Assembly: GCA_022801715.1 (NCBI GenBank)
Contig: JAAWSV010000009.1
Coordinates: 292-64,291, forward strand
Reading direction: 5' to 3'
From: Oscillospiraceae bacterium
Lineage (GTDB): Bacteria > Bacillota > Clostridia > Oscillospirales > Oscillospiraceae
DNA: 64,000 bases
This document shows, in pieces, positions 4,865 to 48,112 of this stretch (position 1 is the stretch's first letter; each line of letters starts with the position of its first letter). The position numbers were made by a program, and so were the translations under genes. Below the pieces are notes generated by a model. That model saw only the letters and a program-made list of their open reading frames with translations, did no database searches and was not told the DNA's origin.

Positions 4865-5605
4865 ATGGGCCAGAATATCGCCGTTGTCTCCGGCAAGGGG
4901 GGCACCGGCAAGACCTCCCTCGTGGCCCATGTGGGCCTGAACCTGGCAGCTCTGGGCAACCGTGTCCTCTGCCTGGACTGCGACGTGGGACTCCGAAATT
5001 TAGATATCGCCTTAGGCATGAGCGACTGCGGCTCCACCGACTTCACCGACGTCCTGGCGGGCCGCTGTACCTTGGAGGAGGGGGTGATCCCCCACCCCAT
5101 TCAGAAAAATTTGTTCCTGCTCACCGCCCCCCTCACCATACAGACGCCGGTGGACGTGGGGGCCTTCGGTGAGCTGATGGCCGCGGTGGAGGAGCAGTAT
5201 GACTACTGCTTGGTGGACGCGCCGGCGGGCCTGGGGGACGGGTTTCGCCTGTCCATCACCGGCTCCAGCCGGGCCATTGTTGTCACCACCACAGACCCCA
5301 CCAGCCTCCGGGATGCCCAGAGGACGGTGATGGAGCTGTCCCACCTGGGGGACGGAAAGGTACATTTAGTGGTAAACCGGTGCAAGAGGAAGCTCCTGCG
5401 GAGCCTGCACCAGACCATTGATGACGCCATAGACGCCGCCGGCCTGCCCCTGCTGGGGGTAATCCCGGAGGACGAGGACCTGCCGCTGGCCCTGGGCCGG
5501 GGCGTGCCTCTGACCTTTGTCTATAACCGGTGCGCCGGCGCGGCCTATGCCCATATTGCCCGCCGCCTCACCGGGGAGAAGGTGTCCCTCCTGCGCATCC
5601 GGTAG
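4865..5605 (+). CDS. MinD/ParA-family P-loop ATPase
   Basis: In-frame ATG 4865 within ORF 4706..5605. MGQNIAVVSGKGGTGKTS Walker A and CDVGLRNLDIALG match MinD-like proteins. The upstream part of the ORF crosses the IR-bounded insert. Confidence 0.8.
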   Translation: MGQNIAVVSGKGGTGKTSLVAHVGLNLAALGNRVLCLDCDVGLRNLDIALGMSDCGSTDFTDVLAGRCTLEEGVIPHPIQKNLFLLTAPLTIQTPVDVGAFGELMAAVEEQYDYCLVDAPAGLGDGFRLSITGSSRAIVVTTTDPTSLRDAQRTVMELSHLGDGKVHLVVNRCKRKLLRSLHQTIDDAIDAAGLPLLGVIPEDEDLPLALGRGVPLTFVYNRCAGAAYAHIARRLTGEKVSLLRIR

Positions 5606-5727
5606 CGCGGAGGCGCCCTGTACACAGAATCAAAAGGAAAATAATAGGCACCACGCCTTTCAGCGCCCTGTGACGGAGTTCACAGCCCCGCATATGGCCT
5701 GTATATAAGCAGAAAGGAGAAGCAGTT

Positions 5728-6162
5728 ATGTATATCGCCCTGATGGCCCACGACAATAAAAAGGATCTGATGGTCCAGTTCTGCTCCGCCTACGCCGGCA
5801 TTCTCAGTCGGCACAACCTGTGTGCCACCAACGCCACAGGCAAGCTGGTGGCTGCGGAGACCGGCCTGCACGTCCACCTGTTCATGTCCTGCCAGCACGG
5901 CGGCAGCCAGCAGATCGGCGCCCGCATTGCCTACAACGAGATGGACTTGGTGCTGTTTTTCGTAGACCCCAACGACTCCTCCATGGAGAAGGAGCTGCTC
6001 TATATTTCCCGTCTATGCGACCAGAACAACATCCCCTTCGCCAGCAACGTGGCCACAGCGGAGATGCTGGTATTCGGCTTAGACCGGGGCGACTTGGACT
6101 GGCGAAACATCGTCAACCCCAAGAACAAGCTGCGCAGCCAGAGCGGAAAGCCCGTATTCTAA
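5728..6162 (+). CDS. Methylglyoxal synthase-like (MGS-like) domain protein
   Basis: 144 aa. IALMAHDNKKDLM...ATNATG...GGSQQIG...DLVLFFVDP...NIPFASNVATAEML is colinear with MgsA. GGAGAAG RBS. Confidence 0.8.
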   Translation: MYIALMAHDNKKDLMVQFCSAYAGILSRHNLCATNATGKLVAAETGLHVHLFMSCQHGGSQQIGARIAYNEMDLVLFFVDPNDSSMEKELLYISRLCDQNNIPFASNVATAEMLVFGLDRGDLDWRNIVNPKNKLRSQSGKPVF

Positions 6163-6183
6163 AAGCCCGCCCTTACGCACCCG

Positions 6184-6205
6184 CTTGAAATCCAAAGATT
6201 TCAAG
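6184..6205 (+). repeat. TGAAATC-N4-GATTTCA hairpin (family member 1)
   Basis: CTTGAAATC caaa GATTTCAAG, a perfect 9-bp stem 22 nt after the MGS-like stop. No U-tract follows. Confidence 0.6.
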
Positions 6206-6728
6206 CAAAAAAGCCACGCCCCACAGCCGACCAAACGCAGGGGCGCCCACCTCCGCAGGGGCCAATGTCCCCATCGGCCCGCCCTCCCCCGGTGCGGTGA
6301 TTGTCGACAGAACAAACACACGCCTTACCAAACCGCCTTGGCCACCGAGCCCCGGCGCGCCGAGGTCGTCGCGCCCTACGGGGTTGGGTCATCGGAGATA
6401 GCTCACGAAAACAGATGTAGGGGCGCACATCGTGCGCCCGCCCTTCCCCAATGCGGCGGGTTTCGATAGAGGCAGGCGCACAATACCCGCAAGGGGCGCG
6501 CCGCATCCGTAAGGCGGCAAAGCCGCCAACGGCTGCGCTGTGTGCGCCCCTACACACGGTATTCCAAAACATTCCAGTTGACGGGGGACGGCGCGCCCTA
6601 CGGGTGATGTATTGGGGCGCGGAGGGAACGGGCCGGTGAGGACACCGACCCCTACGGAGGGGTTTGATGGACCATCCCAGTCGGGAGAGCCGGCGACCAC
6701 AGGCCGCCCCTACAACCGCTACTGGCAA
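6206..6728 (+). repeat. REP/BIME-like mosaic cluster R1
   Basis: Contains GGCGCGCCGAGGTCGTCGCGCC-CTACGG (6354-6381), inverted GTAG-GGGCGCACATCGTGCGCCC (6417-6439) and GGCCGGTGAGGACACCGACC-CCTACGG (6631-6657), plus degenerate units. The same modules recur at six other intergenic sites. Confidence 0.85.
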
Positions 6729-7198
6729 GCACGGCAGCCTTTGCGGCACCGCGCCAGCGAAACAACCATCAAGCTCCGGAGGCAAGTCGAAGCGAGGCAG
6801 GCAGAGCGGCAGCGGACGCCTACAGCATAGCTAAAGACGGGGGAACGCTCTCAAGATACCTTCTGCTTTGCAAGAGCCACCGCCGCCGCGTCCGAAGCGC
6901 CAAGCTGAAAATCAAGCACCGGTCTACCGAAGCAGCGCCGTAGCCTATGGTTCTTAGGGGGCAGCGAATAAGGGAGTTTGCCCGAGGGCAAACTCCCGCC
7001 TGAGCGGACACCTAAGCGCGCTTTTGCCTGCTTTTCTCGCGCGGGAGAAGGGAAAGGATGTGTGAAGGAAAACCGTATGGTTTTCCTTCACGTTCAATCA
7101 ACCCGCCGCAGCGACAGATTTTGGCAAAGTGCCAAAATCTGCTGGGTCTGGGGACCCTGTCCCCAGACCCAGTCGCCCGGGAGCGAAACCCCAGTCCC
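6729..7198 (+). repeat. Dispersed ~356-nt element, copy 1 (expanded to ~470 nt)
   Basis: Shares a 5' core (GCACGGC...CAAGCTCCGG.GGCAAGTCG..GCGAGG...AGAGCGGCAGCGG) and a 3' core (GGTTCTTAGGGGGCAGCGAATAAGG...CGCCTGAGCGGACACCTAAGC...GTCGCCCGGGAGCGAAACCCC) with copies at 11964, 34190 and 36973. Carries extra hairpins at 7061-7171. Confidence 0.85.
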
Positions 7199-7424
7199 GC
7201 GCCGAACGCGGCGCGAAAAAAGGGCATCGAAAGTGCCCCCGCACTTTCACCCCCCTCCCCCTCACAACACAAAAAAAGCAGTGTGCCCTGCCGGGCACCC
7301 CCACTCCACGTTGCACATTCCGATGCAATCCACCCCTCCAAAATCGCGGTTTTTTCTCATTTTTGAAGGGTTTTTCCCTATTTTTACCCCTATACAGTCA
7401 GGCAAAACAAAGGAGAATATAACT

Positions 7425-8783
7425 ATGGGTAGAGTATCACCCCGGACGCTGTCCGGATTTATGGAGCTGCTGCCGCCCCAGCAGCAGCAGATGGAGCGGA
7501 TCATGTCCGCCCTCCGGGAGACCTACTCCCTCTACGGTTTCACCCCCCTTGACACCCCTCTCATCGAGGCCAGCGAGGTCCTCTTAGCCAAGGGCGGCGG
7601 GGAGACCGAGAAGCAGATCTACCGCTTCCAAAAAGGCGACGCCGACCTAAGCCTCCGCTTCGATCTCACCGTCCCCTTGGCCAAATATGTGGCCCTCCAC
7701 TACGGGGAACTCTCCTTCCCCTTCCGGCGCTATCAGATCGGGAAGGTCTACCGGGGGGAGCGGGCCCAGCGGGGCCGGTTCCGGGAGTTCTACCAGGCGG
7801 ATATAGACGTCATTGGCGACGGGCAGTTGAGCATTGTCAACGAGGCGGAGATTCCCGCTATTATCTACTCCACTTTTACAAAATTGGGCCTGAAACGCTT
7901 CCAAATCCGCGTAAATAATCGAAAAATCCTCAACGGCTTCTATGCCATGCTGGGCCTCAGTGAGAAGGCCGGAGACGTGATGCGCACGGTGGACAAGCTG
8001 GATAAAATCGGCCGGTCGGGGGTGGAGAAGGTCCTCACCGGGGAGATCGGCCTCACCGGGGAGCAGTGCGGAGAGATTTTGAATTTCATCGCCATTCAGG
8101 GGGATAACACCGCCGTCCTCAGCGCCTTGGAGGGCTACCGGGGGCGCCACCAGCTCTTTGACACCGGGCTGGATGAGCTCAGAACCGTGGTGGGCTCCTT
8201 GGCGGGCTTCGGGGTGCCGGAGGAGAACTTCGCCGTGGACCTGACCATCGCCCGGGGCCTGGACTACTACACCGGCACGGTCTACGAGACCACGCTTTTG
8301 GACCACCCGGAGATCGGCTCCGTGTGCTCCGGGGGGCGATATGATAACTTAGCGGAATACTACACCAGCAAGCAGCTCCCCGGCGTGGGAATCTCCATCG
8401 GATTGACCCGTTTGTTCTACATTTTGCAGGAGCAGGGCATGTTGAGTGAGGAGATGAACACCGCCCCAGCCGATGTGCTGATCCTGCCCATGACCGAGGA
8501 CCTCTCCCCCGCTATCGAGCTGGCCACCAGCCTGCGGCAGTCAGAGATCCGGGTGCAGGTCTACGCTGAGGAGAAGAAGTTTAAGCAGCGGATGGCCTAC
8601 GGCAATAAGATCGGGGTTCCCTTTGTGATCTTCTTAGGCGAGGATGAGATTGGCCAAGGGAAGGTGACGCTGAAGAATATGCGCACCGGTGAGCAGGAGA
8701 CTATGCTGAAGGACGAGGCCCGAACGAAAATCATCCTCTTCCAAGGACAGGACGACGCTATAGCGCCCATCCGAGAGGCGTGA
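7425..8783 (+). CDS. hisS: Histidyl-tRNA synthetase
   Basis: In-frame ATG 7425 with AAAGGAGAA RBS inside track ORF 6978..8783. Class II HisRS motifs LRFDLTVPLAKY, FRRYQIGKVYRGERAQRGRFREFYQADIDVIG, GGRYDNL. The upstream 149 codons are read-through of the repeat element. Confidence 0.93.
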   Translation: MGRVSPRTLSGFMELLPPQQQQMERIMSALRETYSLYGFTPLDTPLIEASEVLLAKGGGETEKQIYRFQKGDADLSLRFDLTVPLAKYVALHYGELSFPFRRYQIGKVYRGERAQRGRFREFYQADIDVIGDGQLSIVNEAEIPAIIYSTFTKLGLKRFQIRVNNRKILNGFYAMLGLSEKAGDVMRTVDKLDKIGRSGVEKVLTGEIGLTGEQCGEILNFIAIQGDNTAVLSALEGYRGRHQLFDTGLDELRTVVGSLAGFGVPEENFAVDLTIARGLDYYTGTVYETTLLDHPEIGSVCSGGRYDNLAEYYTSKQLPGVGISIGLTRLFYILQEQGMLSEEMNTAPADVLILPMTEDLSPAIELATSLRQSEIRVQVYAEEKKFKQRMAYGNKIGVPFVIFLGEDEIGQGKVTLKNMRTGEQETMLKDEARTKIILFQGQDDAIAPIREA

Positions 8784-9367: not shown

Positions 9368-9640
9368 ATTTCCAGAGCGTCCCGGTTGACGGGGAACAGC
9401 GCGCCGGGTCGTCGCGACCTATGGAGAATTGCGTTTTCGGATATGGTTTGTGAAAACGGGTGGAGGGGCAGGTATCACCCGCACGTCCCCAGTACGGTGA
9501 GTGTCGATGGAGCGGGCGCACAATGTGCGCCCCTACAGACGGGTTATCGGAACATTCCGGTTGACGAGGGGCAGGCCGGTGAGGACACCGGCCCCTACGG
9601 ATGGTTGCGTAGTAAGGCCACCAAAAAGCATCACCACCAA
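9368..9640 (+). repeat. REP/BIME-like mosaic cluster R2
   Basis: AGCGCGCCGGGTCGTCGCGACC-TATGG (9398-9424), GGGCGCACAATGTGCGCCC-CTACA (9514-9537), GGCCGGTGAGGACACCGGCC-CCTACGG (9574-9600). The linkers (GGTTTGTGAAAAC, ATTCCGGTTGACGAGGGG) are shared with the other clusters. Confidence 0.85.
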
Positions 9641-9678
9641 GCACGGCGGCCTCTGCCGTACTGGGTCAGCGAAACAAA
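9641..9678 (+). repeat. 5' fragment of the ~356-nt element (truncated copy)
   Basis: GCACGGCGGCCTCTGCCGTACTGGGTCAGCGAAACAA matches the first ~40 nt of the full copies. Similarity then stops ~75 nt before the aspS start. Confidence 0.6.
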
Positions 9679-9755
9679 CAGCCAAAAGATATCATTCCCA
9701 ATGGTAATATCCTATGGAAGCAATACACATTGTAATAGAAAAGAGGAGCAAATCT

Positions 9756-11602: not shown

Positions 11603-11963
11603 TTATCCACAGTCAGGAGGACAGGCCGGTGAGGACACCGGCCCTACGGGTGGGCTTATTGAGAGTATCTGTGGGCCGCAACCTTTGGCAAGGGAGGTTA
11701 AGGCGCGAAACACCATAATTGCCCAGCCCGGTGATTGTCGGTAGAGCAGGCGCACAATGTGCGCCCCTACAAATGGTTTACCGAAGTACTCTGATTGACG
11801 AGGGACGGCGCGCCGAGGTCGTCGCGCCCTACGGAGGGGGTAACGGACCATCCCGTTGTCGGGGGGCGGGCCGGTGAGGACACCGGCCCCTACGGAGGGT
11901 TTTGGTGGATCATCCCAAGGAGAGTAGGCGGCCACAGGCCGCCCCTACAACCGTTACCGGCAG
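11603..11963 (+). repeat. REP/BIME-like mosaic cluster R3
   Basis: Family A at 11634 and 11868, family C at 11748-11771, family B at 11807-11834, each followed by CTAC. Confidence 0.85.
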
Positions 11964-12320
11964 GCACGGCGGCATTTGCTGCACTGGGCCAGCGCAGCAA
12001 CCATCAAGCTCCGGGGGCAAGTCGTGGCGAGGGAGGTAGAGCGGCAGCGGATGTTTACCACAAAACTAAAGACGGGGGTACGCTTTCAGGACACCTTCAT
12101 CTAAGCGAGAGCTACCGCCGCCGCGTCCGAAGCACTAAGCTGAAATCCCACACCAGTCTACCGAAGCGGCGCCGCGTCTTGGGGTTCTTAGGGGGTAGCG
12201 AATAAGGACTGTGCCCCCAAGGGGGGCTAAAGCCCGCCTGAGCGGACACCTAAGCAGCCTTTTGCTGACTTTTGGGCTGTGCCAAAAGTCAGTCGCCCCG
12301 GGGGGCGAAACCCCCGTCCC
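11964..12320 (+). repeat. Dispersed ~356-nt element, copy 2
   Basis: Colinear with copies 1, 3 and 4. Hairpins GCCCCC aa GGGGGC, CTGACTTTTGG gctgtg CCAAAAGTCAG (12265-12292) and CGGGGGG cgaaa CCCCCG at the 3' end. Confidence 0.85.
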
Positions 12321-12490
12321 TTCCCCGCGCCGGGGCGGCGCGGAAAAAGGGCATGGATCGTCCACTGCACTGTTAAAAGAAAACTTTTGCCCCTGTGGGA
12401 ACACTCACCACACATCACTGCATTTCAAACAAACTACAAAGCCAAAAACTCAAACCAATCAATTTTATAAACCTGATTTAACAAAAAACG

Positions 12491-18477: not shown

Positions 18478-18625
18478 AAATTTTGATGACTGTAGGGGAA
18501 TTCCGCCGCTGGGGGAGGACAGGCGCACGATGTGTGCCCATACATGTGTTCGGCCATGGCGCTCATAGGGCGCGACGGCCTTGGTGCACCGTCCCCCGTC
18601 AACTGGAATGATTGGATAAAACGTG
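18478..18625 (-). repeat. REP/BIME-like cluster R4 (minus-strand orientation)
   Basis: Minus strand reads ATTCCAGTTGACGGGGGACGGTGCACCAAGGCCGTCGCGCC-CTATG, then GTAT-GGGCACACATCGTGCGCC. These are the same units as the plus-strand clusters, here between the T-box terminator and the glyQS start. Confidence 0.8.
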
Positions 18626-18664: not shown

Positions 18665-18889
18665 AATTAAAAACGCCCTGAGCCTGCTGGCTCAGGGCGA
18701 ACGATTGTCCGCGGTTCCACCTGATTTCGCGCCTCTTGGCGCGCACTCTGCCCGGTAACGGCGGGATCCGGCGGGTATTTTCTTCCCGCGGCTCAGGAGG
18801 CGCCTCTCCCCTGCTCCGGCGGGGACTTGCACCGTCCGTCCCCTCTCTGCGGCCGAATCACAGGGTCTTTTCCTCCGTCTTTGCCTGTA
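18665..18889 (-). promoter_or_regulatory. T-box leader (glycine specifier GGC) controlling glyQS
   Basis: Minus strand shows an AGAGA bulge and a GGUGCAAG distal-loop motif. GGC (complement of 18802-18804) sits just 5' of the stem I closing strand CCUCC. T-box sequence AAUCAGGUGGAACCGCGG (18704-18721) is followed by terminator CGCCCUGAGCC agca GGCUCAGGGCG UUUUU (18665-18696). Confidence 0.85.
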
Positions 18890-18895
18890 GGAGGG

Positions 18896-33890: not shown

Positions 33891-33934
33891 ACACACGTCT
33901 AAGGCCCGCCTTTTGGCGGGCCTTAGACGTGTGT
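33891..33934. repeat. Perfect 20-bp-stem palindrome
   Basis: ACACACGTCTAAGGCCCGCC tttt GGCGGGCCTTAGACGTGTGT, preceded by a CA-rich run. No U-tract. Possibly the rnhA terminator. Confidence 0.6.
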
Positions 33935-34004
33935 GCAGTCCGCTTGTTTGAGGTGCAGTGGGGGGTGGGAAAGCAATGGTTATATGGATGGGTTGTTGGA
34001 ACGT

Positions 34005-34189
34005 TCGGGCGGACGGGAGACGTCGCGCCGGGGTCGTCGCGCCCTACGGGGTTAGGTCATCGGACATGGTTCGTGAAAACAGATATAGAGGTGCACAGCG
34101 TGCGCCCGTCCTTCTCCAGTGCGGTGGGTGTCGAGAGAGCGGGCGCACGCTGTGCGCCCCTACAGGTGTATGACCAATACCACCAGAAA
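34005..34189 (+). repeat. REP/BIME-like mosaic cluster R5
   Basis: Family B variant at 34022-34049 (..CGCGCC-CTACGG), a degenerate inverted family C unit near 34085-34110 and a forward family C unit GGGCGCACGCTGTGCGCCC-CTACA at 34141-34164. The GGTTCGTGAAAAC linker is conserved. Confidence 0.85.
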
Positions 34190-34545
34190 GCACGGCGGCC
34201 TTTACTGCACAACGAACAGCGCAACAACCATCAAGTTTCGGGGGCAAGTCGTGGCGAGGGTGGCAGAGCGGCAGTGGCGGTTTGCCACAAAGCTATAGAC
34301 GGGGGGACGCTCTCAGGACACCTTCTGCTTTGCGAGAGCTACCGCCGCCGCGTTGGGTGTGCCAAGGTTGGACGAGCACTGGCCTGTCGAAGGAGCGCGC
34401 AGCTTGGGACTCTTAGGGGGGAGCGAATAAGGGCTGTGCCCCCCTGCGGGGGCTAAGGCCCGCCTGAGCGGACACCTAAGCGCGCTTTTGCCTACTTTTC
34501 TCGCGTGAGAAAAGTAGGTCGCCTGGGGGTGAAACCCCCGTCCCC
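34190..34545 (+). repeat. Dispersed ~356-nt element, copy 3
   Basis: Colinear with the other copies. The H2 hairpin here is CCTACTTTTCTC gcgt GAGAAAAGTAGG (34491-34518). The 3' end is GGGGG tgaaa CCCCC. Confidence 0.85.
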
Positions 34546-36660: not shown

Positions 36661-36972
36661 GTAGGAAGATTTCGGTGGAGGAGGGATGGCGCGCCCTACG
36701 GACGGTCTATCGGGAGTGCGATGGGCATCGGGGGATGGGCCGGTGAGGACACCGGCCCCTACGGGGTTGGGCCACCGGACATGGTTCGTGAAAATGTTTG
36801 CAGGGGCGCACAATGTGTACCTGTCCTTCCCCAGTACGGCGAGCACCAACAGAAGGGGCGCACAATGTGCACCCCTACAAACGGTATACCGAAGCATTCC
36901 GATTGACGAGGGATGGCGCGCCGAGGCCGTCGCTCCCTACGGAGATTTATATAACAACAGCATTGCTGGCAA
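36661..36972 (+). repeat. REP/BIME-like mosaic cluster R6
   Basis: Collapsed family B at 36688-36701, family A at 36737-36764, degenerate inverted C near 36800, forward C at 36855-36879, family B at 36915-36942. Confidence 0.85.
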
Positions 36973-37328
36973 GTACGGCGGCATTTGCCGCACCGGGCCA
37001 GCGAAGCAACCTTCAAGCTCCGGGGGCAAGTCGTGGCGAGGGTGGCAGAGCGGCAGCGGACGCCTACAGCATGGCTACAGACGGGAGGATGCTCTCAAGA
37101 TACCATCCACTAAGCAAGAACAACCGCCGCCGCGTTGGGGGCACCAAGGTTGGACGAGCGCCGGTCTGTCGAGGGGGAATGCGTCCTGGGGTTCTTAGAG
37201 GGTAGCGAATAAGGGCTGTGTCCCCAAGGGGGGCTAAAGCCCACCTGAGCGGACACCTAAGCAGCCTTTTGCTGACTTTTGAGCTGCACCAAAAGTCAGT
37301 CGCCCGGGGGGCGAACCCCCTGTCCCCT
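36973..37328 (+). repeat. Dispersed ~356-nt element, copy 4
   Basis: Colinear with the other copies. H2 is CTGACTTTTG agctgcac CAAAAGTCAG (37272-37299). The 3' hairpin abuts the stop codon of the convergent ECF gene at 37327. Confidence 0.85.
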
Positions 37329-37902
37329 ACGCCACGGTGCCCAGCAGGTGGGCCCTGCGCAGGGCCGGGCTCATCGCCAGGTACAGCAGCGCTGCGCAGA
37401 TGGTGGCAATAATCCCATTGGCCAGTGATATCGGCAGCTTCACACCTAGCGTATACGTCAGAGCTACATCCCAAGTAAATCCCTTAACAAAATGCCCGGA
37501 AATAATGTTCTTTGTCAGATACAGCACCACATAGGTCATCGCCCCAGCGGCGCCAGCCAGCCAGATGCGTACTCTCTCGCTGCCAAAGCGCACCACGTGC
37601 ATCAAAAGTCCCGCCACCATGGCCATGGCAAACTTATTGATGAAGGTGATCCAGAACTCCGGTGCCCAAGCCGGGTCCGTCAAATCCACCATCGCCGAGC
37701 CGATGCCCGCTGCCAGAGAGCCGGTAATGGGCCCGAAAAGCAGCGCAGAGAGGATGCACATGGTGTTCCCCAGCTGAATTGCCGTCTTGCCCAAGGGACT
37801 GGGGATGGGGATGCTGGCAAACTTAGTCAGTGCAAACACCATCGCCGAGAGGACGCCGATGAGGGTGATCCTCTGTACGGTAAAAAACTTCTTCTTCTCC
37901 AT
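37327..37902 (-). CDS. ECF transporter S component (substrate unknown)
   Basis: 191 aa, six TM segments. LIGVLSAMVFALTKFASIPIPSPLG...LLFGPITGSLAAGIGSAMVDL is typical of ECF S units. Confidence 0.8.
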   Translation of the reverse strand: MEKKKFFTVQRITLIGVLSAMVFALTKFASIPIPSPLGKTAIQLGNTMCILSALLFGPITGSLAAGIGSAMVDLTDPAWAPEFWITFINKFAMAMVAGLLMHVVRFGSERVRIWLAGAAGAMTYVVLYLTKNIISGHFVKGFTWDVALTYTLGVKLPISLANGIIATICAALLYLAMSPALRRAHLLGTVA

Positions 37903-40719: not shown

Positions 40720-40758
40720 AATGGGGTGTGGCAGAGTGATTCTCTGCCGCACCCCATT
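40720..40758 (+). terminator. 17-bp hairpin after the dCMP deaminase gene
   Basis: AATGGGGTGTGGCAGAG tgatt CTCTGCCGCACCCCATT (one G-T pair). The T-tract is weak. Confidence 0.55.
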
Positions 40759-40782
40759 CTGCTTGACGTGAAGGAGCTGTCT

Positions 40783-41814
40783 ATGAAACGTTATCAAGCT
40801 ACTGATTGGGAGCAGTACTGCCGGAGCTGCTGTCCTCCGCCCTGCCCCCCGGGGCCGCCGCCCTGTCCTCCCGGGCCGCCGCCCCGCCCGCCTCATCCGC
40901 CGCGGCCGCCCCATCCGGTACCGCCCATGCCGCCCCGTCCGGGTGTGATGGGCCCCACAGGCCCCACCGGTCCGACCGGCCCCACTGGCCCTGCCGGTGC
41001 GGGGCTGGACAGTGTGGCCCCCTTTGTTCCCGGTGCCTACTACGCCATGGGGGATCTTGTCTACTATGACGGCAGTCTCTACCGCGCCAACCGCAATGGC
41101 GCGGCAGGGGTCCCCGGTACTTCCCCGGATTTTGATTTGGTGACTGTGACAGGGCCCCAAGGCCCCACCGGGCCTATGGGTCCCATGGGCCCGGCCGGCG
41201 CCACCGGTGCGACTGGTGCCCCGGGTGCCACAGGTGCAACAGGTGCGGTGGGCCCCACCGGTCCTGTCGGCCCTGCTGGTGCTGCCGGCGCTACCGGCCC
41301 CGCCGGTGCGATAGGCCCCACCGGCCCTGCTGGTGCGGCTGGTCCCGCTGGTGCAGAAGGTCCTACTGGCCCCGCCGGTCCTGCTGGTGCGGCAGGCCCC
41401 GCTGGTGCGGAGGGCCCCACCGGCCCCGCCGGCCCTGCTGGTGTAGCAGGCCCCGCCGGTGCGGAGGGCCCCACCGGCCCCGCTGGCCCTGCTGGTGCAG
41501 CAGGCCCCGCCGGTGCGGAGGGCCCCACCGGCCCCGCCGGCCCTGCTGGTGCGACTGGCCCCGCCGGCGCAGAGGGTCCTACCGGTCCCGCCGGCCCTGC
41601 TGGTGCGGCAGGCCCCGCTGGCGCGGAGGGTCCTACCGGCCCCGCTGGCCCTGCTGGCCCTATTGGCCCCACCGGTCCTACTGGGCCTGCCGGTACCATC
41701 ACACCGGGACCCGCTATAGCGGACTTGGAGCCTTCCGCAGACCTGGGCGCCATCGTGACGGAGATCAATCAGCTCTTAGCTGCTCTCCGGGCTGCTGGCA
41801 TTATTGCAACCTGA
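40783..41814 (+). CDS. Collagen-like triple-helix repeat protein with Cys/Pro-rich N-terminus
   Basis: In-frame ATG 40783 after [37 protein letters not shown], a short G-X-Y run (40942-41004), a ~50-aa aromatic-rich globular insert ([21 protein letters not shown]), about 60 uninterrupted G-X-Y triplets (41152-41694) and a 39-aa C-terminal tail. Confidence 0.85.
41341..41664 (+). repeat. Tandem 54-bp repeat (about 6 units) inside the collagen-like gene
   Basis: Unit encodes [18 protein letters not shown]. Units start at 41341, 41395, 41449, 41503, 41557 and 41611 and differ only by synonymous or near-synonymous changes. Confidence 0.85.
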
Positions 41815-47959: not shown

Positions 47960-48112
47960 AGGCGGAGGCTCCGCCGGTGACGGGAACAGCGCGCCGAGGC
48001 CGTCACACCCTACGGAATATGGAGGATCAGAACCACACAATCAGCGAAGTATGGAGGATCGAAGCTGCGCGGTTAAGCCCGTAGGGCGGGACGACCTCGG
48101 CCCGCCGTCCCC
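47960..48112. repeat. REP doublet (cluster R7): two family-B units in inverted orientation
   Basis: AGCGCGCCGAGGCCGTCACACC-CTACGG (47988-48015) and CCGTAG-GGCGGGACGACCTCGGCCCGCC (48078-48105). They enclose a direct repeat TATGGAGGATC at 48018-28 and 48050-60. Confidence 0.8.

Follow-up and report, generated by a model that had tools for sequence, protein, structure and literature searches.

Repeat clusters of the window

The stretch of DNA analyzed here (the window) comprises 64,000 nucleotides of an Oscillospiraceae genome (assembly GCA_022801715.1, contig JAAWSV010000009.1, positions 292 to 64,291). At seven intergenic sites it carries about 28 short hairpins of the form GGGC-N4-loop-N4-GCCC followed by CTAC. 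Structurally, these hairpins belong to the GTAG-tagged superfamily of repetitive extragenic palindromic (REP) sequences, here in a Firmicute family. The window has a GC content of 59.6% and a gene set of the replication-origin type (parB, serS, dnaN, recF, gyrB, and gyrA); its GC-skew profile is noisy, and the origin switch cannot be placed from skew. It also encodes hisS, aspS, and a class II tRNA synthetase open reading frame (ORF) with a T-box leader, named glyQS in the original prediction, which was made from the letters of the window alone. This T-box, at 18690-18890, is the sole match in the window that reaches the Rfam threshold. Contigs syntenic with the window come from gut metagenomes, including those of mouse gut, and from uncultured Oscillospiraceae-like metagenome-assembled genomes (MAGs).

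Each unit consists of a GC-rich hairpin of 19-22 nt followed by CTAC, and the stems fall into families A, A', B, C, and D; stems are 7-9 bp and loops 3-4 nt long. A scan of the window found 66 perfect hairpins whose stems have 7 bp or more; CTAC comes within 2 nt after 9 of them, where about 1 is estimated by chance. Family A is GGCCGGTGAGGACACCGGCC followed by C/CCTACGG, and its 20-mer occurs five times in the window at no more than one mismatch. Family D is GGCGRCCACAGGCCGCC followed by CCTAC, and a collapsed form of family B is GGCGCGCC-CTACGG. The units are separated by conserved linkers (ATTCCRGTTGACGRGGG, GGTTCGTGAAAAC, and CCTTCCCCAGTRCGG). At five of the seven sites the cluster runs into a long structured element, or a stub of it, always in the same orientation. 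The genes adjoining the composites of REPs and the long element are housekeeping genes: hisS, a glycoside hydrolase family 3 (GH3) gene, the RNase J gene, rplU, cbiJ, and mreC.

The original prediction described families A, B, and C, joined by linkers, as mosaics resembling REP sequences and bacterial interspersed mosaic elements (BIMEs). Pattern searches and the perfect-hairpin scan recovered all of these modules at or next to the predicted positions, and the linkers recur as repeat families D5, D6, D9, and D13. The predicted architecture also holds: GC-rich hairpins with a CTAC/GTAG tag, several families, and conserved linkers. Some details had to be corrected. Family A starts at 6631, 9574, 11869, and 36738, within 1 nt of the prediction, while the copy assigned to 11634 starts at 11624. 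All listed copies of family B exist, and the list lacked an inverted copy at 48081-48106 on the minus strand and a degenerate copy at 9398-9422. The three described families are real, and a fourth one, family D, is present at 6692 and 11924. All three inverted copies of family C were found; the true GTAG tag precedes only the one at 6417-6439, the others having ATAG or GCAG. The REP clusters take up about 1.7 kb in total and the adjoining long element another 1.7 kb or so, in agreement with the predicted sum of roughly 3.5 kb. The modules and elements are as follows (window coordinates, strand in brackets).

6255-6280 (-): degenerate A'-type REP (GGGCCGATGGGGACATTGGCCC + CTGC), cluster 1
6354-6379 (+): family B REP (GGCGCGCCGAGGTCGTCGCGCC + CTAC), cluster 1
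6417-6439 (-): inverted family C REP, GTAG-first on the plus strand, cluster 1
6476-6549 (+): family C REP with an insert of about 52 nt in the loop, ending in GTGCGCCCCTACA
6589-6602 (+): collapsed family B copy
6630-6655 (+): family A REP with one stem mismatch, followed by CTAC, cluster 1
6692-6713 (+): family D REP (GGCGACCACAGGCCGCC + CCTAC), abutting the long element
6715-7225 (+): long variant (about 510 nt) of the long structured element, which adjoins the 3' side of cluster 1 and precedes hisS
9398-9422 (+): degenerate family B REP with tag CTAT, cluster 2
9514-9536 (+): family C REP followed by CTAC, cluster 2
9574-9598 (+): family A REP followed by CCTAC, cluster 2
9632-9680 (+): 5' stub of the long element, 45-50 nt (repeat family D11)
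11624-11647 (+): family A REP of cluster 3, at which a 245-nt segment varying between strains has its left boundary
11748-11770 (+): family C REP followed by CTAC, cluster 3
11807-11832 (+): family B REP, cluster 3
11868-11893 (+): family A REP of cluster 3, the right limit of this variable 245-nt segment
11924-11948 (+): family D REP with GTAG at the 5' and CTAC at the 3' side (GTAGGCGGCCACAGGCCGCCCCTAC)
11950-12345 (+): long structured element, short variant, upstream of the GH3 gene
18521-18543 (+): degenerate family C REP with tag ATAC, inverted relative to cluster 4
18565-18590 (-): family B REP with tag CTAT, cluster 4, between the T-box terminator and the synthetase start codon
34022-34047 (+): family B REP, cluster 5
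34085-34107 (-): inverted family C REP with a degenerate tag (ATAG on the plus strand), cluster 5
34141-34163 (+): family C REP followed by CTAC, cluster 5
34176-34545 (+): long structured element, short variant, upstream of the RNase J gene
36688-36701 (+): collapsed family B copy, cluster 6
36737-36762 (+): family A REP, cluster 6
36800-36822 (-): inverted family C REP with a degenerate tag (GCAG on the plus strand), cluster 6
36856-36878 (+): family C REP followed by CTAC, cluster 6
36915-36940 (+): family B REP, cluster 6
36960-37335 (+): long structured element, short variant, its 3' end meeting the 3' end of a convergent ECF-S gene
47988-48013 (+): family B REP, first half of an inverted pair with GTAG tags inward, cluster 7
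48081-48106 (-): family B REP, second half of the inverted pair, cluster 7

Inverted arrangements in the window are limited to the pairs of an inverted and a direct family C copy (C'-C) and to the 47988/48081 pair. Only the C'-C pairs, with spacers of 33-35 nt, fit an inverted doublet of the kind formed by REP doublets forming hairpins (REPINs). The family C copy at 6476-6549, interrupted by its loop insert in the window, is intact (GTAGGGGCGCACAATGTGCGCCCCTAC) in the syntenic relative L117. The repeats were also expected to generate spurious ORFs. Indeed, ORFs of 136-194 aa lie wholly inside the REP arrays and the long element, at 6201-6785 on the minus strand and at 11795-12205, 33929-34456, and 36686-37198 on the plus strand. 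They are almost certainly spurious and could enter annotation as hypothetical proteins.

Hairpin units in other Oscillospiraceae

Data for relatives were obtained by scanning a one-genome-per-species collection with the exact family A 20-mer, and all counts for relatives rest on the matches listed from that scan (at least 111 loci). The tagged form of the 20-mer, (C)G-GGGCCGGTGAGGACACCGGCCC-CTAC(G/A), occurs in at least 55 loci whose flanks are otherwise unrelated. Among the matches listed, the tagged loci all belong to Oscillospiraceae or unclassified Clostridia, bar a few probably mis-binned contigs, and the 20-mer matches in Streptomyces and other phyla lack the CTAC tag. A tally from record titles gives at least 28 species-level genomes with the tagged family A hairpin, including MAGs of Oscillibacter, Intestinimonas, and Pseudoflavonifractor and the isolate Pseudoflavonifractor capillosus An827. 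Thus, the modules are not local duplications confined to the window; such confinement would, according to the original prediction, have refuted it.

A de novo search of the listed loci for GC-rich hairpins followed by CTAC returned the consensus GGGC-N4-loop-N4-GCCC + CTAC, and families B, C, and D likewise carry CTAC after the hairpin. The stems vary in a compensatory manner (CCGGTG/CACCGG, CCGATG/CATCGG, GCGCAC/GTGCGC, and GCGGCC/GGCCGC), and 150 of 180 are perfect. Family B has a fixed C/T mismatch at stem position 7, seen in 17 copies. No excess of G-U wobbles over A-C mismatches, a sign of RNA-level selection, was found in the stems (3 vs. 4).

Among the matches listed, about 93% of copies (157 of 169) are intergenic, with 78 copies between co-directional genes, 22 between convergent, and 10 between divergent ones; at least 9-14 loci were counted per MAG. 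Inverted dimers prevail in the relatives, with 30 head-to-head and 30 tail-to-tail against 17 head-to-tail pairs (30 inverted pairs have the tags outside and 30 have them inside), and spacers are preferably 15, 22-28, or about 33 nt long. Partners in the inverted doublets are often one A unit (CCGGTG) and one A' unit (CCGATG). Two loci, L048 and L110, contain arrays of 11-15 units in alternating orientation. In orthologous doublets of sister species, the hairpin cores are kept and the spacers have diverged. Conservation of the core at orthologous sites suggests that the units are under a constraint imposed by the host or by a binding protein.

The hairpin GGCCGGTGAGGACACCGGCC is also found, in identical form, in AT-rich Bacteroidota (Chitinophagaceae/Ferruginibacter and related), as GT-hairpin-ACGGCGG. 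There it is usually paired with an inverted GGTTGGTGTCCTCACCAACC, forming a REPIN-like doublet of its own (loci L005, L007, L025, L028, L030, L035, L037, L054, L059, L075, L089, L095, L099, L106, and L111); in L111 it makes up a tandem array. Common origin, transfer, or the same binding constraint are possible explanations for the presence of one 20-mer in two phyla. In the Ferruginibacter MAG locus L028, positions 5571-5699 also hold two adjacent matches to the Acido-Lenti-1 RNA on opposite strands, unrelated to the hairpin.

Orientation of the clusters

All seven clusters had been thought to share the polarity of local transcription. This claim does not extend to the relatives, where REP orientation relative to flanking genes is unbiased (26:26 and 14:12). 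In the MAG CANPBB01, a close relative, the composite at locus L074 is antisense between two minus-strand genes, and the composite is not co-oriented with the downstream gene in L074, in L055, or at the fourth copy of the window. The uniform polarity in the window therefore follows the long element, not transcription: arrays in the window species share the polarity of the long element on their 3' side.

A long structured element downstream of the arrays

The long element is a multi-copy sequence of 370-510 nt with a short and a long variant. It is absent from clusters 4 and 7, and a complete copy occupies the 9632-9680 stub site in other strains. Five more copies were found in the MAG CANPBB01, likewise preceded by REPs in the same orientation. 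An alignment of 13 copies, drawn from the window, its strains, and CANPBB01, extends over 360-510 nt and shows invariant blocks, including GGTTCTTAGGGGGNAGCGAAT and CCTGAGCGGACACCTAAGC, with variable hairpins between them; copies are located in the window and in loci L009, L011, L055, L060, L074, L113-L118, and L123-L126. Folded with RNAalifold, seven short-variant copies yield a multi-branch structure closed by a long-range helix; 7 of its pairs are compensatory, and G-U pairs are numerous on the plus strand.

The REP that abuts the long element may belong to family A, B, C, or D, and its orientation is always that of the element. Between CTAC and the conserved start of the element lie about 6 to 40 nt, depending on the copy. 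The copy upstream of hisS is kept in a more distant relative, in which the preceding REPs differ. No recombinase or transposase gene was found next to any copy of the element. In other collections, the long-element motif gave no viral and four metagenome matches, all from the same lineage. The long element probably represents either a non-coding structured RNA or an element that is non-autonomous and docks at REP-CTAC.

The hisS-aspS genes in Firmicutes commonly bear a T-box. No T-box or other Rfam leader was detected upstream of hisS in 6150-7420; instead of a T-box leader, the long element and a C-rich stretch precede hisS in the window (region 7225-7424). The long element has a second copy in other strains, located ahead of aspS.

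Variation between strains

Ten syntenic contigs, picked by an identical encoded MGS-like protein, were compared with each other. The mosaics vary between strains through gain and loss of whole modules, with boundaries set by the hairpins. The spacer between aspS and the GH3 gene is 956 nt long in the window and in L115, and 704 nt in L113, L114, L116, and L118. In the alignment, the short strains lack a 245-nt segment spanning one A module to the next. The short allele has the first A module's own 3' flank (CTACGGGTGGG) and then the downstream flank of the second module. Because the first module's 3' flank is retained, the indel junctions lie at an equal offset 3' of each hairpin; both are 3' of the CTACGG..GGG motif and outside the 20-nt identical core. 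To judge from the position of the junctions, this indel would fit a process that cuts and joins DNA at a set distance from the REP. Alternatively, it may be a microhomology-mediated deletion.

The composition of the array in the hisS-aspS spacer also varies among strains, and one indel there, in which two B modules are fused half to half, has the look of simple recombination. At one orthologous site, the long element has diverged by about 20% between strains amid nearly identical flanks, which suggests exchange between paralogous copies of the element. In contrast to these variable sites, the REP pair at 47988-48106, its spacer included, is invariant in all ten strains.

One contig, L119, was considered as a candidate empty site and rejected as an assembly chimera with the break inside an A module. 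At positions 8250-8330, exactly within the family A hairpin, its sequence changes over to that of another aspS-like gene's 3' end. Thus, REPs cause assembly breaks and mis-joins.

Origin and spread of the hairpins

The occurrence of identical units in unrelated flanks requires a spreading mechanism, for which a REP-associated tyrosine transposase (RAYT) is the classical candidate. The explanation we prefer, with a probability of roughly 0.55, is that the modules belong to a GTAG/CTAC-tagged REP superfamily native to Oscillospiraceae, spread as non-autonomous units by a Y1 transposase and further changed by local recombination and occasional hitch-hiking in MITEs (transposable elements of the miniature inverted-repeat type). 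The REP units would be non-autonomous elements that originally spread as single-stranded DNA hairpins, cut beside the GTAG tag by an HUH Y1 transposase acting in trans. This enzyme may have resembled the RAYTs or belonged to the IS200/IS605 type common in Clostridia. The remaining changes would be due to recombination on a local scale and to DDE-type MITEs that now and then carried units along. The IS200-type (subclass 1.1) Y1 transposases are strongly represented in Clostridia (Quentin 2018, PMC6006769).

Several observations weigh against the preferred explanation. Unlike classical BIMEs, the window arrays are mostly head-to-tail, with 6 head-to-tail dimers and 1 inverted dimer under strict calls. 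The taxa named for RAYT-class (class 2) enzymes do not include Firmicutes (Quentin 2018, PMC6006769). No ORF for a RayT or IS200-type Y1 transposase was found in the 0.98 Mb of the window and REP-bearing loci, which represent less than 1% of the genomes concerned. The queries were E. coli RayT (phmmer), a profile of 120 enterobacterial RayTs, the TnpA proteins of IS608 (sequence checked against PDB) and Sulfolobus, and a profile of 109 diverse RAYT representatives, and none gave a match below E = 0.7. The sensitivity of the search was adequate, as the latter profile detected distant archaeal TnpA at 4e-9. A listing of RayT protein homologs contained only Enterobacteriaceae among the matches listed and is uninformative for Clostridia. 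According to Pfam, the 25 commonest families among 82 REP-neighboring ORFs are all housekeeping ones, although a single transposase could still escape this analysis; 20 such ORFs checked singly are all housekeeping or unknown. Further, an A/A' doublet is central in an element of 158-281 nt in the Oscillibacter MAG JAAVHD01 and other Oscillospiraceae MAGs (loci L033, L034, L043, L046, L050, L063, L069, L080, and L082). Its terminal inverted repeats (CACGCCYGTCTCATAAA) and target-site duplications of 7-10 bp (a perfect 10-bp one, ATAACTGTCT, in L046 and 7-8 bp in L082) are the signature of a DDE transposase, not of Y1. Finally, no clean insertion of a single REP relative to an empty site was obtained that would demonstrate transposition as such, and direct repeats that recombined, or between which replication slipped, can account for the strain indels as well.

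The mosaics might also be the variable 5' domain of a larger composite, consisting of an REP array and the 370-510-nt element, and not independent mobile REPs. Polarity, position, and copy number would then follow the long element, which would probably be a multi-copy non-coding RNA or a non-autonomous mobile element targeting REP-CTAC sites, and the arrays would be resized by unequal recombination. We regard this scenario as possible and hold it tentatively. It agrees with the order of REPs and long element, in one orientation, at five of the seven window clusters and in the five CANPBB01 copies, with the varying type of the abutting REP, expected if the element adjoins any REP, and with the conserved fold and its 7 compensatory and many G-U pairs. 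Retention of the hisS-upstream element in a distant relative with different REPs and the 20% or so divergence of the element amid near-identical flanks point in the same direction. IS110-family elements (IS621), which carry a structured RNA and insert in one orientation into the CT of REP ...CCTAC, provide a lead only. On the other hand, clusters 4 and 7 have no long element, and some 28 species have the REP families in abundance, while finds of the long element are limited to the window lineage; the absence of a recombinase or transposase gene beside any copy, the variable distance to CTAC, and the lack of an Rfam match also speak against the composite. More doubtful still is that the hairpins are kept as functional elements of RNA or DNA structure, such as stabilizers of mRNA 3' ends, processing sites, or protein-binding sites, inherited vertically and homogenized through gene conversion or selection, while transposing little or not at all today. 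Such a role would explain the perfect cores and changed spacers in orthologous doublets of sister species, the identical 26-nt unit in at least 28 species, the invariance of the 47988-48106 pair in 10 strains, and the location of several copies between a stop codon and the next ribosome-binding site in operons or in the 5' untranslated region of the synthetase ORF with the T-box leader. E. coli REPs have been reported as mRNA stabilizers, and it has been argued that many REPs act as RNA (Di Nocera 2013, PMC3733652). Orientation relative to genes is, however, unbiased in the relatives, the stems show no G-U excess (3 vs. 4), and the window arrays lie downstream of strong terminator-like hairpins, so that transcription into the arrays may be low; moreover, identical units in unrelated flanks would still need a spreading mechanism.

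Transport as cargo of ordinary DDE-moved MITEs, which would make the REP-like appearance incidental, is highly improbable. The A/A' doublet does reside inside an element with terminal inverted repeats and target-site duplications in JAAVHD01 and other Oscillospiraceae MAGs, but this inverted repeat has no match in the window at up to three mismatches and is exact in only 5 of 136 loci, being absent from most REP-bearing loci, and for most REPs and doublets the flanks are unrelated from the very edge of the hairpin. The window modules, which lack such terminal inverted repeats, are not themselves MITEs. A broader combination would be an REP/BIME system of Oscillospiraceae that functions without a classical RAYT, with an enzyme such as an IS200-type TnpA or an REP-targeting recombinase spreading or maintaining the units instead, and that is physically coupled in at least one lineage to an undescribed multi-copy structured RNA of 370-510 nt docking or inserting at REP-CTAC; we consider this combination unlikely as a whole, though the head-to-tail mosaics and the coupling to the long element, both unusual features of the window, leave room for it. 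In JAAVHD01, several contigs end within the MITE repeat.

Comparison with known repeat systems

The architecture of the hairpins matches that of the GTAG superfamily of REPs, in whose description Firmicutes are nowhere in the text (Di Nocera 2013, PMC3733652). Members of this superfamily are palindromes of 20-40 bp that typically exceed 100 copies in a genome. A literature search for REP or RAYT in Firmicutes or Oscillospiraceae, with genus names and "extragenic palindrom" included, found nothing relevant, and REPs in Oscillospiraceae seem to be undescribed.

The closest parallels are provided by the REP/BIME sequences of E. coli and other enterobacteria (GTAG-3, substrates of TnpA_REP/RayT). 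In both cases, a GC-rich imperfect palindrome with GTAG at one end is extragenic and located mostly between co-directional or convergent genes, and both systems have conserved linker motifs and a family-specific stem mismatch, as in family B here. The E. coli BIMEs pair inverted REP types (Y and Z) at preferred spacers, as A is paired with A' in the relatives of the window species. The present system differs by its Firmicute host, short and mostly perfect stems with loops of 3-4 nt, an identical core in dozens of species, the head-to-tail layout of the window, and the lack of a detected RayT. The Pseudomonas REPIN-RAYT system (Bertels & Rainey 2011) shares inverted doublets with variable spacers, the commonest arrangement in the relatives here, and several REP families per genome. 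Unlike in that system, no flanking RAYT is seen here, some relatives have the doublet embedded in a MITE that shows terminal inverted repeats and a target-site duplication, and the window species mostly lacks symmetric doublets. With the Stenotrophomonas SMAG and GTAG-6 to GTAG-9 repeats, the hairpins have in common compensatory stem subfamilies, all three dimer orientations, and larger clusters; the phylum and sequences are different, and the clusters here are fused to a long structured element.

Two other types of elements are similar in part. The bridge RNA-bearing IS110/IS621 elements resemble the long element in being structured and non-coding and in having a fixed orientation right after REP ...CCTAC, a likeness that serves as a lead only: the long element has no adjacent recombinase gene, no sequence or Rfam match, a variable distance to CTAC, and a length of 370-510 nt. 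Small repeats of Firmicutes, such as pneumococcal BOX, RUP, and SPRITE and EFAR of Enterococcus, are multi-copy, intergenic, structured, and in some cases modular. Unlike the present hairpins, they are AT-rich and longer, have no GTAG tag, and are not of the REP type.

The biology of REP, BIME, and REPIN sequences has been studied almost wholly in Proteobacteria, and the surveys consulted cover eight phyla without mention of Firmicutes. GTAG-tagged REPs that are nucleotide-identical across dozens of abundant gut Clostridia widen the known taxonomic range, and the supposedly obligatory association of REPs with RAYTs becomes testable in a lineage without reported RAYT-class enzymes. The repeats also account for spurious ORF calls and contig breaks in Oscillospiraceae MAGs, several loci ending inside repeats, and their analysis exposes a multi-copy structured element that always stands behind an REP.

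Other identities of the hairpins and a minor observation

Several other identities of the hairpins were considered and rejected. No credible match to an Rfam family was found in the clusters or the long element, with a gathering-score search of the whole window and a search of the clusters up to E = 5, and a scan of the window for tRNA and tmRNA found nothing. The hairpins are not intrinsic terminators, since they precede CTACGG or CTACA and not T runs, and a terminator scan called none of them. A CRISPR array is ruled out by the several different hairpins, irregular spacing, and conserved linkers. Reading the TTGACG linker as a promoter found no matching -10 box.

Outside the clusters, the window contains a further repeat, of 9-nt periodicity (GGNCCNNCN-type, at least 31 copies), at 41145-41700 inside an ORF of 362 aa (40726-41814). 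The product of this ORF looks like a collagen-like Gly-X-Y repeat protein.

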